Shown here in pieces: positions 16,593 through 21,716 of a stretch of 48,682 bases of DNA (position 1 is the stretch's first letter; each line of letters begins with the position of its first letter). The translations under genes and the position numbers were made by a program. Origin of the DNA: a virus (taxonomy: Duplodnaviria; Heunggongvirae; Uroviricota; Caudoviricetes); IMG/VR virus record IMGVR_UViG_2511231131_000006, positions 1 to 48,682 of that record, one strand, 5' to 3'. Under the pieces are notes generated by a model, which searched no databases, was not told where the DNA came from, and saw only the letters and a list, made by a program, of their open reading frames with translations.

Positions 16593-18443
16593 ATGTCGAT
16601 TAAACATTACGATGTTATCAGGGCGGCGTCGCCGTCAGACCTTGCGGAAAAGCTGACACACAAACTGAAAGAGGGCTGGCAGCCATACGGCGGACCGGTT
16701 GCCATTACGCCGTACACACTGATGCAGGCGGTGGCTATTGAAGGAGAGCCACAGGTCGGCCCTTCATCTGAGCCGGATTGGTACTACGTCATCGTACTGG
16801 CCGGGCAGTCCAATGCAATGGCTTACGGTGAAGGGCTTCCGCTGCCGGATTCATACGATGCTCCGGATCCGCGCATTAAACAGCTGGCGCGCCGCAGTAC
16901 AGTGACGCCGGGTGGGGCTGCCTGCAGATATAACGATATTATTCCGGCTGACCACTGTCTGCATGATGTGCAGGATATGAGTACGCTGAATCATCCGAGG
17001 GCTGACCTGAGCAAAGGGCAGTACGGCTGTGTCGGTCAGGGTTTACATATTGCCAAAAAACTGCTCCCGTATATCCCGAATAACGCGGGGATCCTGCTGG
17101 TACCATGCTGTCGTGGTGGTTCGGCATTTACCCAGGGCGCGGAGGGGACATTCAGCGAGTCCACGGGGGCCAGTCAGGATTCGGCACGCTGGGGGGTGGG
17201 CAAGCCGTTATATCAGGATCTGATTTCCCGCACAAAAGCGGCATTGCAGAAAAATCCCAAAAACGTTCTGCTGGCCGTCTGCTGGATGCAGGGTGAGTTT
17301 GACATGAGCGCCGCCACCCACGCACAGCAACCTGCGCTGTTTACAGCCATGCTGACACAGTTTCGTGCTGACCTCTCCGTGTTTAACGCGCAGTGCCATG
17401 GTGGCAGTGCTGCAGATGTGCCGTGGGTTTGTGGTGACACGACGTATTACTGGAAAAATACATACGCTACCCAGTACGACACCGTGTACGGCGGGTATAA
17501 AAACAGGGAGAGTGAGGGCGTTTATTTTGTGCCCTTCATGACAGACGGTAACGGCGTCAATACCGCCACTAACGCGCCGGCAGAAGATCCGGATATTCCG
17601 GCATCAGGATATTACGGTGCGGCATCGAGAACGAATGGAAACCAGGTATCATCAAACCGCCCGACACATTTCAGTTCATGGGCGCGCAGGAGCATTATTC
17701 CGGATCGTCTGGCAACCGCTATTCTGAACGCAGCCGGGCGCACCTCAGCCTTCATCAGTGGTAAGGCACCGGAAATCAAACCCTCGCCCGGCGGCAACAC
17801 GCCATCGGGTCCGTCTGCAGATACGTCCGTTCGCACAATCTCCCTGCTGCCGGCAGCCGGAGAGGCTGCTGCGCAGGGCTGGAGCATTAAGGATGGCGGA
17901 ATTCAGTTGTCAGATGGTGTATTTAAGATCACCAAGCAGAGCAATAAAACCTGGTCCCTGACGCATCCGGTGGATGACGCAATTACCCTGCTGACACAGG
18001 GCGGCAGACTGACCTGTAAGTTCCGCCTGTCAGGCGCACTGACCAACAATCAGTTCGGGCTGGGGATTTATCTGTATACGGATGCTCCCGTTCCTGATGG
18101 TGTGGCGATGACGGGTACCGGTAATCCGTTCCTGATGTCGTACTTCACTCAGACCACTGACGGCAGAGTGAATCTGATGCATCACAGGAAAGCCGGAAAC
18201 ACGAAGCTGGGGGAGTTCGGCGATTACGGTAACGACTGGCAGACGCTGGAGCTGGTGTTCACCGCCGGCAGTGCCACGGTTACTCCGAAACTGAATGGAG
18301 TGGCTGGCCCGGCATTCCAGGTTATAAAAGACAGTCTGACACTGGGACTGAATGCGCTGACGCTGACGGATGTTACAAAAAATGCAGCGTATGGCGTTGA
18401 GATAGAAAGTCTGATGCTGGAGATAAATGCACCGGCAGCATAA
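16593..18443 (+). CDS. NanS-p-like sialate O-acetylesterase (DUF1737 N-terminus plus SASA-type esterase)
   Basis: 616-aa ORF in the slot between the tRNAs/stx position and the lysis genes, where Stx phages carry nanS-p. N-terminus MSIKHYDVIRAASPSDLAEKL and GQSN(A)M esterase motif. Confidence 0.7.
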   Translation: MSIKHYDVIRAASPSDLAEKLTHKLKEGWQPYGGPVAITPYTLMQAVAIEGEPQVGPSSEPDWYYVIVLAGQSNAMAYGEGLPLPDSYDAPDPRIKQLARRSTVTPGGAACRYNDIIPADHCLHDVQDMSTLNHPRADLSKGQYGCVGQGLHIAKKLLPYIPNNAGILLVPCCRGGSAFTQGAEGTFSESTGASQDSARWGVGKPLYQDLISRTKAALQKNPKNVLLAVCWMQGEFDMSAATHAQQPALFTAMLTQFRADLSVFNAQCHGGSAADVPWVCGDTTYYWKNTYATQYDTVYGGYKNRESEGVYFVPFMTDGNGVNTATNAPAEDPDIPASGYYGAASRTNGNQVSSNRPTHFSSWARRSIIPDRLATAILNAAGRTSAFISGKAPEIKPSPGGNTPSGPSADTSVRTISLLPAAGEAAAQGWSIKDGGIQLSDGVFKITKQSNKTWSLTHPVDDAITLLTQGGRLTCKFRLSGALTNNQFGLGIYLYTDAPVPDGVAMTGTGNPFLMSYFTQTTDGRVNLMHHRKAGNTKLGEFGDYGNDWQTLELVFTAGSATVTPKLNGVAGPAFQVIKDSLTLGLNALTLTDVTKNAAYGVEIESLMLEINAPAA

Positions 18444-18890: not shown

Positions 18891-19097
18891 ATGGAAAAAA
18901 TCACAACAGGTGTGTCATACACCACGTCAGCGGTGGGGACGGGATACTGGTTACTGCAGCTGCTGGACAAAGTCTCTCCGTCCCAGTGGGTGGCAATAGG
19001 TGTGCTGGGAAGTCTGCTGTTTGGCCTGCTGACGTATCTGACAAATCTTTATTTCAAGATTAAAGAAGATAAGCGTAAGGCTGCGAGAGGTGAATAA
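18891..19097 (+). CDS. Holin (phage 21 S / pinholin-like)
   Basis: 68 aa, two TM segments, C-terminal [13 protein letters not shown]. Closely resembles phage-21-type S. Confidence 0.85.
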
Positions 19098-19594
19098 TGT
19101 CGCCGTCATTACGCAAGGCTGTTGCAGCTGCTATTGGTGGTGGGGCTGTTGCCATAGCGTCTGTGCTCATCACTGGTCCAGGTGGTAACGATGGTCTGGA
19201 AGGTGTCAGCTACATACCATACAAAGATATCGTTGGCGTATGGACTGTATGTCACGGACACACCGGAAAAGACATCATGCCCGGTAAAACGTATACCGAA
19301 GCAGAATGCAAAGCCCTCCTGAATAAAGACCTTGCCACGGTCGCCAGACAAATTAACCCGTACATCAAAGTCGATATACCGGAAACAACGCGCGGCGCTC
19401 TTTACTCGTTCGTTTACAACGTGGGCGCTGGCAATTTCAGAACATCGACGCTTCTTCGCAAAATAAACCAGGGCGATATCAAAGGCGCATGTGATCAGCT
19501 ACGGCGCTGGACATACGCTGGCGGTAAGCAATGGAAAGGGCTGATGACTCGCCGCGAGATTGAGCGTGAAGTCTGTTTGTGGGGGCAACAATGA
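19097..19594 (+). CDS. SAR endolysin (lysozyme, R21-like)
   Basis: 165 aa with N-terminal signal-anchor [23 protein letters not shown] and glycoside-hydrolase-24-like core. Start overlaps the holin stop. Confidence 0.85.
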
Positions 19595-20058
19595 GCAGGG
19601 TAACCGTTATTATCTCCGCTCTGGTTATCTGCATTATCGCCTGCCTGTCATGGGCTGTTAATCATTACCGCGATAACGCCATTACCTACAAAGCGCAACG
19701 CGATAAAAAAGCCAGTGAGCTGAAGCTGGCGAACGTGACAATTACTGATATGCAGGTACGCCAGCGTGATGTCGCTGCACTTGATGCCAGATACTCGAGG
19801 GAATTAGCCGATGCGAGAGCTGAAAATGAAACTCTGCGTGCTGATGTTGCCGCTGGTCGTAAGCGCCTGCGCATCAACGCCAACTGTCCAGGCTCCTTGC
19901 GTAAAGCCCCCATCACCTCCGGCGTGGGTAATGCAACCGGTCCCCGACTGGCAGAAGCCGCTGAACGGGATTATTTCATCCTCAGAGAACGGCTGATGGC
20001 AATGCAGAAGCAACTGGAAGGAGCACAGGAATATATCCGTACCCAGTGTATACCGTGA
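19591..20058 (+). CDS. Spanin inner-membrane subunit Rz (i-spanin)
   Basis: ATG overlaps the endolysin stop (ATGA). N-terminal TM segment then coiled coil. The track ORF starts at an upstream GTG (19579). Confidence 0.75.
19826..19996 (+). CDS. Spanin outer-membrane lipoprotein subunit Rz1 (o-spanin), embedded in Rz
   Basis: +1-frame ORF inside Rz. [15 protein letters not shown] lipobox (LVVSAC) and Pro-rich mature part. Confidence 0.7.
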
Positions 20059-20523
20059 TGTTTTGTTATGAAGGTGTTACTGGTAACATTAAGGTAATTT
20101 AACAAAGAGTCAGTTCCGGACTTTATAGTGTGCTCAGTTCATGGCCAAAAACGATTTCTGTGATAAATATTTTGAATATTATTTACAGGTAAATGGAGTG
20201 GGGCGCATGGATAGAAATATTACAATAGAGTATGAAGTATATGCCCGTATTGTATGGGCAGAGAAGGCAAAAACACGGTAATTCCGTGTGTTGCCATGAT
20301 ACCTGATTGGCAGAATAGTTGTTTGGTTTTGAGTATATAGTCAGCGTTTTTTGTTCAGTAATTGCCCCCTCAAAAAATAATAAAATAAGGTGATTATTTT
20401 TGTTTATTATTTAGTTTTTTTTGTGTGTTATTTTATTGTTTTTGCGTGGTTTGTTTTTTATTGTTATTTCATTAAGGGAAGGTAAATTCAGGATGGCAGT
20501 CTGTAGATAATCGGAGGTCACTT

Positions 20524-20838
20524 ATGCTACATGATCACGTGGCAGAATGTCTGGAGAAAAAAGGACTGTACCGGAGAGCAGCTGAACGATGGGCAAAAGT
20601 GATGGTACAGCTAAGTGATGACCAGAAAAGAAAAGTGGCGGCACAGAAACGAGCAGAGTGTTTGCGTAAGGCGCGCCGGACTCCGGTTTCACCGGTGAAC
20701 CTGACCGAAATAAAACAAGCGGTCAACAGACTACATTCTGAGTTGGGAATGGGATTTGAAGAGCGGCGGGTATTCCGACGATATAAAGGGACAGGAGAAC
20801 AGAATACGTCCGGAAACGCGCGGTCAAAAAAATGCTAA
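20524..20838 (+). CDS. PerC/Pch-family-like small transcriptional regulator (alternatively ANR-like)
   Basis: 104-aa basic protein with LEKKGLYRRAAERWAKVM motif recalled from PerC-type activators. Preceded by a T-rich low-complexity region. Confidence 0.45.
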   Translation: MLHDHVAECLEKKGLYRRAAERWAKVMVQLSDDQKRKVAAQKRAECLRKARRTPVSPVNLTEIKQAVNRLHSELGMGFEERRVFRRYKGTGEQNTSGNARSKKC

Positions 20839-20919
20839 AAAATATCTGAGAGAGTTATTGCCTGTTACCATAAGAAAAAGCGACTTTAGTGGTCGCTTTT
20901 TGTGTCATATATAAGTCGT

Positions 20920-21144
20920 TTAAGTAAACCTGTCTGAACAGGTGCTCTGGTCGTGTTTGTCTTTGTTGGGTACAAATTGAGAATATTTTTCATTAATTAA
21001 TCTTCTTCTGCAGGCTTCAATAACCCACGCTGAAAAATTACCTGAACCTTTCTGGTCAAGAGCGATGTTAATTTGTTCAATCATCTGGTTTGGAAATCGG
21101 ATGTTGCGGGTTGTTGTTCTGCGGGTCCGGTTTTTCGGTGACAT
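20920..21144 (-). CDS. Hypothetical small DNA-binding protein
   Basis: 74-aa ORF with very basic N-terminus RTRRTTTRNIRFPNQMIEQINIALDQKG, suggesting a ribbon-helix-helix-like fold. Confidence 0.35.
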   Translation of the reverse strand: MSPKNRTRRTTTRNIRFPNQMIEQINIALDQKGSGNFSAWVIEACRRRLINEKYSQFVPNKDKHDQSTCSDRFT

Positions 21145-21185
21145 TTTCTTTCCTCTGGTGACAAGCTATATGGCGAGGATTTTAC

Positions 21186-21716
21186 ATGGCCGTGCTTCGT
21201 ACGTTACCGGGCAGAATCAAAACTCTGAATACCCGGCGGGTGAATGTCCTGAAGGGTGAACAGCGTCGGGTCAGTGGCAGTGCCCGGGTTTCCCTCAAGC
21301 GTCGTATCTGGCTGAGGGATGCCGGACAGTGCTGTCTCTGTGGGCGTGTGGTTGACCTTTGTGACAGTGAACTCGATCACCGCATTGCACTTCAGTTCGG
21401 TGGTGGTAATGAGGAGACGAATCTCTGGACGCTCTGTACCGAATGCCATCGCCAGAAGTCAGTCAGTGAAACGGCGAGTGGTATGCCGGACCCGACGCTG
21501 CCGGAGGTCATGGCAGGGCAGACGATATCATCGGACTGTGACCCGCCCCGGGGGGGGGATCATCCGGCGAAAAAAACGATCGCCCCGGACACCGCCCCCC
21601 GTCTCATGCAGAGAAAAAATTCCTGTTTCAGGCCAGTTAACATGTTAACTGGCTGCCCGGGCATTTTTTCGGTTTTTATCTTTATTATTCAGTTTGTTGT
21701 GCGAAAAAAATGTTAA
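21186..21716 (+). CDS. HNH endonuclease (packaging-associated); C-terminal extent uncertain
   Basis: HNH motif CCLCGRVVDLCDSELDHRIALQFGGGNEETNLWTLCTECHRQKS. The ORF runs through a G9 homopolymer (21550-21558) into the cos-like region, so the distal about 60 codons may not be real. Confidence 0.55.
   Translation: MAVLRTLPGRIKTLNTRRVNVLKGEQRRVSGSARVSLKRRIWLRDAGQCCLCGRVVDLCDSELDHRIALQFGGGNEETNLWTLCTECHRQKSVSETASGMPDPTLPEVMAGQTISSDCDPPRGGDHPAKKTIAPDTAPRLMQRKNSCFRPVNMLTGCPGIFSVFIFIIQFVVRKKC

Follow-up and report, generated by a model that had tools for sequence, protein, structure and literature searches.

The DNA analyzed here is a 48,682-nt stretch of a virus genome (Caudoviricetes; IMG/VR record IMGVR_UViG_2511231131_000006, positions 1 to 48,682; hereafter the window, to which all coordinates refer unless stated otherwise), and our subject is the pch gene at 20524-20838 together with the 465 bp that separate it from the lysis gene Rz. 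We conclude, with a probability of roughly 90%, that this is a pchA-type locus with its native AT-rich promoter region, carried as a moron by a lambdoid prophage like those of Escherichia coli O55:H7 and O157:H7, and that pch has a proximal promoter of its own, is gated at its Shine-Dalgarno (SD) sequence and is preceded by a small open reading frame (ORF) that occurs by chance. The initial annotation of this stretch, made without database searches, was right in placing a PerC/Pch-type regulator behind an unusual AT-rich region and wrong in reading a leader ORF there. The elements of the locus are the following:

20024-20523, + strand: counterpart, with the same ends, of the "PpchA" promoter fragment in the literature; native regulatory region of pchA (primer match)
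20089-20188, strand not assigned: invariant block, a candidate operator or RNA hairpin (alignment)
20141-20281, + strand: 46-codon ATG ORF, probably non-coding, whose last 24 codons (20207-20281) are the "leader" of the initial annotation
20291-20319, + strand: alternative promoter-like site, TTGCCA-17-AATAGT (9/12 consensus positions)
20346-20480, + strand: hypervariable T-rich tract, 54% T, 23% GC and 23% A (composition, alignment, Tandem Repeats Finder (TRF))
20461-20488, + strand: candidate sigma-70 promoter of pch, in which 16 nt separate -35 TTGTTA (20461-20466) from -10 TAAATT (20483-20488; read from the sequence)
20513-20517, + strand: SD sequence of pch, GGAGG (read from the sequence; kept in all copies, including the distant loci L007 and L008)
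20524-20838, + strand: pch gene, a group 1 PerC homologue of 104 amino acids (Pfam PerC; product identical to PchA)
20605-20629, + strand: predicted pairing site for the small RNA (sRNA) DicF in the coding sequence, with the seed ACCAGAAA at 20621-20628

The identity of the gene is firmly established. On the Pfam PerC profile (PF06069), for which the cut-off is 22.6, its product scored 149.3 bits (E 3.8e-44), residues 1-89 aligning to positions 1-89 of the 90 in the profile, and it also matched phrog_994 and phrogs described as "transcriptional activator." The protein is identical at 104/104 residues to PchA (ECs_1091) of E. coli O157:H7 Sakai, differs by one residue from PchB and by two from PchC, and is identical to RefSeq entry WP_001303878.1, which is named "PerC family transcriptional regulator." It is basic, with a pI of 10.3 and 25 lysine and arginine residues vs 12 aspartate and glutamate residues. 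The PerC-like motif that the initial annotation had seen in a basic protein of Pch size belongs to a full-length family match, and the similarity to PerC/Pch for which it recommended searching was found. A sequence search of the Protein Data Bank with the 104-residue protein returned no relative. At the DNA level, 19900-21001 aligned to the Sakai pchA locus without gaps and with 98.6% identity. The pchA frame is listed in a Sakai RIBOseq paper as a translated "novel intergenic gene" (XECs104, NC_002695 1183367-1183678), together with the overlapping XECs103 and XECs105; the annotation used by its authors apparently lacked pchA.

The genes pchA, pchB and pchC have been described as group 1 PerC homologues that are required for full expression of ler and of the enterocyte effacement locus (LEE) (PMC6265319). 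According to the literature on the identical protein, Pch activates the LEE1/ler promoter by displacing H-NS-type silencing there, and thus acts as an anti-silencer. In enterohaemorrhagic E. coli (EHEC), the type III secretion island LEE has the Pch proteins as its master activators, and colonisation is therefore decided by the switching-on of each pch copy. The three Sakai genes (pchA, ECs_1091; pchB, ECs_2182; pchC, ECs_2737), on prophages Sp4, Sp11 and Sp14, share with the window the layout of Rz, a 463-465-bp spacer and pch, and their upstream DNA is 95-99% identical to that of the window; the T-rich tract of pchB is the one that differs most. In Sp4 the segment from the lysis genes to pchA is inverted beside IS629, whereas in the window it has the normal orientation and is followed by DUF3950, HNH endonuclease and HK97-type terminase genes. 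PerC of enteropathogenic E. coli, encoded by perABC on pEAF, belongs to the same family (PF06069) and, according to the literature, has the same LEE1/ler target. It differs in being encoded by the third gene of the perABC operon. That operon is plasmid-borne and controlled by PerA, and would presumably have no counterpart of the pch promoter region.

The gap between Rz and pch comprises 465 bp (the end of Rz at 20058, the start of pch at 20524) and has a GC content of 33.3%, vs 51.8% for the window as a whole. Within 20350-20499, 100-bp windows drop to 24-26% GC, and 20319-20468 is the most T-rich 150-bp segment of the entire 48.7 kb, with 55% T against a 99.9th percentile of 50%; runs of four to eight T occur at 20347, 20397, 20415, 20431, 20439 and 20454. 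These values bear out the roughly 460 bp of AT-rich, T-tract-rich sequence after Rz that the initial annotation had pointed to. Its further suggestion that this DNA is strongly bent or silenced is plausible in that the region is very AT-rich, but the A/T tracts are not phased with the helix: AA/TT power at 10 and 10.5 bp did not exceed that of shuffled sequences in the T-rich region, and the peak of periodicity lay at 11.5-12 bp (0.05% of shuffles reached the 11.5-bp value, with no correction for the 16 periods tested). These values do not support a simple model of planar bending. Very AT-rich DNA is the kind that H-NS prefers. We found no published H-NS occupancy data for the pch promoter; the accessible part of a Sakai ChIP-chip paper describes prophage virulence genes as generally H-NS bound and does not name the pch promoters.

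Nine versions of the gap were aligned, namely that of the window, those of Sakai pchA, pchB and pchC, that of strain A25, one on plasmid pOkiPb and those of three E. albertii loci (L013, L015 and L016, with the repeat at locus coordinates ~2755-2834). In this alignment 45% of the columns of 20346-20480 were variable, vs 6.7% in the pch coding sequence, while T-richness was kept in every copy (46-57% T, 22-30% GC). At 20393-20444 TRF detected 2.5 copies of a degenerate 21-bp unit in tandem, where direct repeats D1 and D2 were also reported, and the homologous unit in E. albertii is the 19-bp TATTTTTGTTTGTTATTTA, present in 4.2 copies with a 95% match in L015. The three E. albertii loci differ from one another by one or two whole 19-bp units, so that their gaps between Rz and pch measure 465, 484 or 503 bp; the tract is therefore a variable-number tandem repeat directly upstream of the promoter of a virulence regulator. 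A hydrophobic 31-residue ORF in the tract (20390-20485) was considered and rejected; it has no family match, and it is not conserved in frame because its tract is subject to 19-bp indels.

Of 5426 complete E. coli genomes, 672 contain the DNA of the gap, at a median of three copies per genome and always with pch, and it is unannotated in every genome match listed. Among species-representative genomes only two further loci were found, L007 and L008, which encode distant Pch homologues (in the E. albertii type strain, 91% protein identity, and in an Escherichia sp., 77%). What these two loci have in common with the window ahead of the ATG is limited to the 25-65 nt next to it, and their upstream DNA is also AT-rich.

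That this region holds promoter activity is known from published work. The primers used to amplify PpchA, cacaggaatatatccgtaccc and aagtgacctccgattatctac (PMC10101121), matched the window without mismatches at 20024-20044 and 20503-20523, respectively. The fragment, amplified from O157:H7, was used in 2023 to build butyrate biosensors, and it drives sfGFP in the non-EHEC strain E. coli BL21, where its basal activity is high and butyrate induces it; its authors state that the operator within it is still undefined (PMC10101121). Another group, working with the same pchA promoter, attributed the butyrate response to Lrp, and reviews report that LrhA activates both pchA and pchB. Within the fragment, the core promoter of pch is probably the TTGTTA/TAAATT pair, which lies about 30-60 nt upstream of the ATG. 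This pair agrees with the consensus at 8 of 12 positions, below the threshold of the promoter scan. TATTGTT and GGTAAA are invariant in 9/9 aligned copies, although the hypervariable tract flanks them, and the last ~60 nt before the ATG are conserved.

At the level of translation, two reviews describe the SD of pchA as occluded by an anti-SD sequence within the coding sequence, where DicF pairs and activates translation (PMC7769764, PMC7873438). Our predictions for the window reproduce this arrangement. In minimum-free-energy folds of the full-length mRNA, 20513-20524, comprising the SD and the start codon, was predicted to pair with 20612-20623. The first 22 nt of DicF, with the 5′ end taken from the MG1655 annotation, were predicted to form a duplex with 20605-20629 at -20 kcal/mol, in which the DicF seed UUUCUGGU pairs with ACCAGAAA over a perfect 8 bp, and this site overlaps the predicted anti-SD at 20612-20623. 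The seed site is altered in strain A25 (ACCAGCAA) and contains a wobble pair in E. albertii (AUCAGAAA). Compared with the DicF-activated, SD-occluded pchA mRNA of Melson and Kendall (2019), to the extent that the reviews relay it, the window copy is the same by prediction and nothing differs.

The genomic setting was assessed on the window as a complete lambdoid prophage, with gene order read from ORFs, Pfam, RefSeq annotation and NCBIfam. The features on either side of pch are:

18891-19097: holin
19097-19594: lysozyme
19591-20058, + strand: Rz spanin gene (Pfam Phage_lysis, E 2e-46; RefSeq "lysis protein" at the equivalent position)
19811-19996: Rz1, embedded in Rz
20875-20901, both strands: bidirectional intrinsic terminator that separates pch from the convergent DUF3950 gene, A5-GCGAC-loop-GTCGC-T5 (read from the sequence)
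20920-21144, - strand: YlcI/YnfO (DUF3950) gene, convergent to pch (Pfam DUF3950, E 1e-19; NCBIfam YlcI_YnfO_N)

The order is thus holin, lysozyme, Rz and pch, with pch directly downstream of the lysis genes, as at 3/3 Sakai pch loci; past the DUF3950 gene lie an HNH endonuclease gene and then those of the small and large terminase subunits. In phages BP-4795 and Stx2_EH2201 the Rz, DUF3950, HNH and terminase genes are present and pch is absent. Rz is the last conserved lysis gene ahead of the insert, and because homology with these two phages breaks at ~20050 and resumes at 21010, the inserted segment can be delimited to ~20051-21009. The GC content of the pch module is 39%, vs 52-55% in its flanks. 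The pch segment is a classic prophage moron, an add-on between Rz and the DUF3950/HNH/terminase genes, as judged from its absence from collinear relatives, its sharp borders, its published promoter activity, its terminator and its deviating GC content. The term "moron" reportedly goes back to Juhala et al. in 2000. It resembles the prophage morons bor and lom of lambda in being an additional gene that has its own promoter and terminator, deviates in GC content, is set among conserved late genes and is missing from close relatives; it differs from them in that its cargo is not a surface protein but a regulator of transcription whose target is a pathogenicity island located elsewhere, at a distance.

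The terminator at 20875-20901 coincides with the terminal 11-bp hairpin that closes the predicted fold of the pch mRNA. It was missed by the terminator scan, probably since A-U pairs lengthen the stem into the T-run. The right breakpoint with the pch-less phages (21010) falls within the DUF3950/YlcI gene, leaving the 3′ end of that gene, to ~21009, in the variable segment, and the moron therefore carries its own C-terminal ~30 codons of the DUF3950 gene. The neighbouring HNH endonuclease ORF (21186-21716) encodes 176 amino acids, vs 121 in BP-4795, and in the identical sequence of DEC5D it is flagged by RefSeq as a pseudogene, incomplete at the C-terminus.

The 1.3 kb from 19900 to 21200 were 100% identical in E. 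coli O55:H7 strains DEC5D and TB182A and 99.8% identical in many O157:H7 genomes. From sequenced phage genomes the pch module is essentially absent, the only matches being two unverified contigs with an O157:H7 host, and a few plasmids carry the segment.

Taken together, these data suggest how the locus may work. In a lysogen, pch would most likely be transcribed from its own promoter within the AT-rich region, with the T-rich repeat tract just upstream of the -35 possibly serving as an UP-like region or as a region bound by nucleoid proteins or regulators, and with the invariant block farther upstream as a putative distal regulatory site. LrhA and the published butyrate/Lrp-dependent induction of pchA would provide the inputs. 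Translation would then be gated by pairing of the SD with the anti-SD in the coding sequence, a pairing that DicF would relieve. After prophage induction, transcription from the late promoter may extend into pch as well, to judge by the place of the gene downstream of Q and of the lysis genes.

Several points weigh against this interpretation. The proposed position of the core promoter was read from the sequence, and transcription may instead start farther upstream and yield a long U-rich leader, from the site at 20291-20319, the only one on the + strand that reached the promoter-scan threshold. A scan with the Lrp consensus gave only matches with three mismatches, at 20311 and 20378, and is uninformative. 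SD:anti-SD pairing appeared in the full-length folds and not in every shorter construct. The RIBOseq evidence on the small ORF, given below, comes from three growth conditions and concerns a multi-copy locus. Finally, our interpretation offers no explanation for the strong conservation of 20089-20188.

The alternative that survives best is that the T-rich tract is transcribed. The pch mRNA would then start at ~20326, from TTGCCA-17-AATAGT, or farther upstream, and regulation, by Hfq, Rho or RNases for example, would act on a U-rich 5′ leader of ~200 nt. Besides the result of the promoter scan, the reviews speak of a structure in the pchA "leader region," and the strand-asymmetric composition of the tract (54% T, 23% A), which is kept in all copies, would suit a role at the RNA level. 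However, promoter-like matches in the region occur at the number expected from shuffled sequences, and the -10 hexamer of this site is altered in pchB and its -35 hexamer in E. albertii. Moreover, indels of 19 bp and 45% variable columns are tolerated within the tract, and the distant loci L007 and L008 share only the stretch closest to the ATG. We consider a long regulatory leader unlikely, and favor transcription from the proximal promoter.

The second alternative concerns the invariant block. The 100 nt at 20089-20188 form the longest invariant run of the alignment, being identical in 6/6 E. coli copies and differing at three positions in E. albertii. This invariance stands out because strain A25 differs at 17/105 pch codons; elsewhere the divergence of the locus reaches 8%. 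An inverted repeat, CTGTGATAAATATT-TTG-AATATTATTTACAG, with 14-nt arms at 20158-20171 and 20175-20188 separated by a 3-nt gap, lies within the block, as does the start of the chance ORF. Honda et al. are said to have mapped an LrhA-responsive region to ~400 bp upstream of pchA, which would lie in this block.

The segment 20089-20290 could encode, on either strand, a small RNA of its own or an RNA element with a defined structure, rather than a site for a protein that controls pch. On the + strand, 20085-20300 folds with a z-score of -3.2, and 0/200 shuffles were as stable; the - strand has a promoter-like site (20406-20377) and, beyond it, a terminator-like hairpin (20289-20273). Yet mutations in the 20273-20289 hairpin are uncompensated, the hairpin is weak, and the - strand fold has a z-score of only -2.2, and a minus-strand sRNA between these two signals was rejected on these grounds. 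Known RNA families were likewise rejected, as Rfam gave no match in 19900-21200 even at E<=1. The + strand stem is largely the DNA inverted repeat itself, which fits a dimeric DNA-binding protein equally well. In addition, 20089-20290 was found at 1872 places in exactly the same 672 genomes as the whole gap, always next to pch; a segment that never occurs apart from pch is better explained as a cis element. A separate RNA at this position thus appears improbable, and we regard the block as a putative regulatory site of pch.

The least tenable alternative is control by a leader peptide or upstream ORF, in which translation of the 24- or 46-codon ORF would govern termination or translation of pch in the manner of an attenuator. 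What speaks for it is that the ORF exists, that the surrounding DNA is well conserved, and that gene callers had called it before, as its match to phrog_2157 shows; that match shows nothing beyond earlier gene calling. The 24-codon frame with a good ribosome-binding site that the initial annotation described at 20207-20281 is indeed present, its ATG at 20207 being preceded by GGAG 7 nt upstream, while the ATG at 20141 has no SD. The length of the ORF is, however, no greater than expected by chance, since ORFs of at least 46 codons occurred in 57% of random 465-mers of the same composition generated by a first-order Markov model, and in 34% when only ATG starts were allowed. Among 5.8 billion proteins, its only relatives were 11 entries from E. 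coli and E. albertii with at least 87% identity, and these include variants with C-terminal frameshifts and truncations of 25-31 amino acids.

Its pattern of variation is not that of a coding sequence either. Relative to the window, the codon changes comprise 12 non-synonymous and two synonymous ones, and the variable sites are distributed as 5, 4 and 3 over the first, second and third codon positions, with no excess at the third. Of the nine aligned copies, five have lost the GGAG (those of pchC, of pOkiPb and of the three E. albertii loci), and the E. albertii copies, whose DNA is ~90% identical, carry a TAA at codon 32 and a 1-nt deletion. With its start 52 nt ahead of the ATG and its end at codon 16, the invariant block does not respect the bounds of the ORF. 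The stop codon of the ORF is 243 nt away from pch, and no terminator-like site was found on the + strand in 20282-20523, an interval occupied by the hypervariable T-rich repeat. Finally, the ORF is missing from the Sakai RNAseq/RIBOseq screen of unannotated intergenic ORFs of at least 30 amino acids, in which there is no entry between those at 1183603-1183695 and 1184893-1184994, where the ORF would lie at ~1183922-1184062. On these grounds the small ORF was rejected as a gene. It is most likely a chance ORF in conserved non-coding DNA and not the leader peptide that had been proposed, and control of pch through its translation has very little chance of being correct.

The pch gene, its location in prophages, its promoter fragment, now a butyrate biosensor part, and its control by an sRNA have all been published; they are already known, and the finding therefore adds no new biology. 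In the literature consulted on the pch regulatory region, the T-rich repeat and the invariant block are not described. We tentatively raise the possibility that the 19-21-bp T-rich repeat may be a tuning knob for the silencing or activation of each pch copy, and that the 20089-20188 block, with its 14-bp-arm inverted repeat, may be an unmapped operator for LrhA, Lrp or butyrate. The contrast between repeat and block and the promoter architecture are modest leads and do not constitute a new kind of system. A hypervariable repeat beside an invariant inverted-repeat block could nevertheless guide the mapping of the operator, and the evidence against the upstream ORF as a gene is firm.

Several other features of the prophage were observed. 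Three tRNA genes, for Met(CAT), Lys(TTT) and Arg(TCT), were predicted by ARAGORN upstream of the late genes, at 15270-15510, of which only the first and third reached the Rfam gathering score. Sakai prophages carry ileZ-argN(tcg)-argO at the same position, so that the middle tRNA seems to differ. Between the tRNAs and a NanS-p-like esterase gene (16593-18443) no stx genes were found, and an Rfam match to STnc100 (16283-16455) lies just upstream of the esterase gene. Further Rfam matches were sok of a hok/sok module (11836-11985) and isrC, an Hfq-binding sRNA (42323-42445, - strand), downstream of the host-specificity gene. In the early region, a 252-residue ORF at 10889-11647 contains a periplasmic solute-binding domain (SBP_bac_11, E 5.5e-34), an unusual cargo for that position. 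At the right end, an ORF with an OspG/NleH-type kinase domain (47762-48682) runs to the last base of the window and may be cut off; it is preceded by a second, shorter ORF of the integrase family (46605-47345, - strand). Prophages with pch are described in the literature as also carrying type III secretion effectors, and the kinase-domain ORF of the window fits this description.

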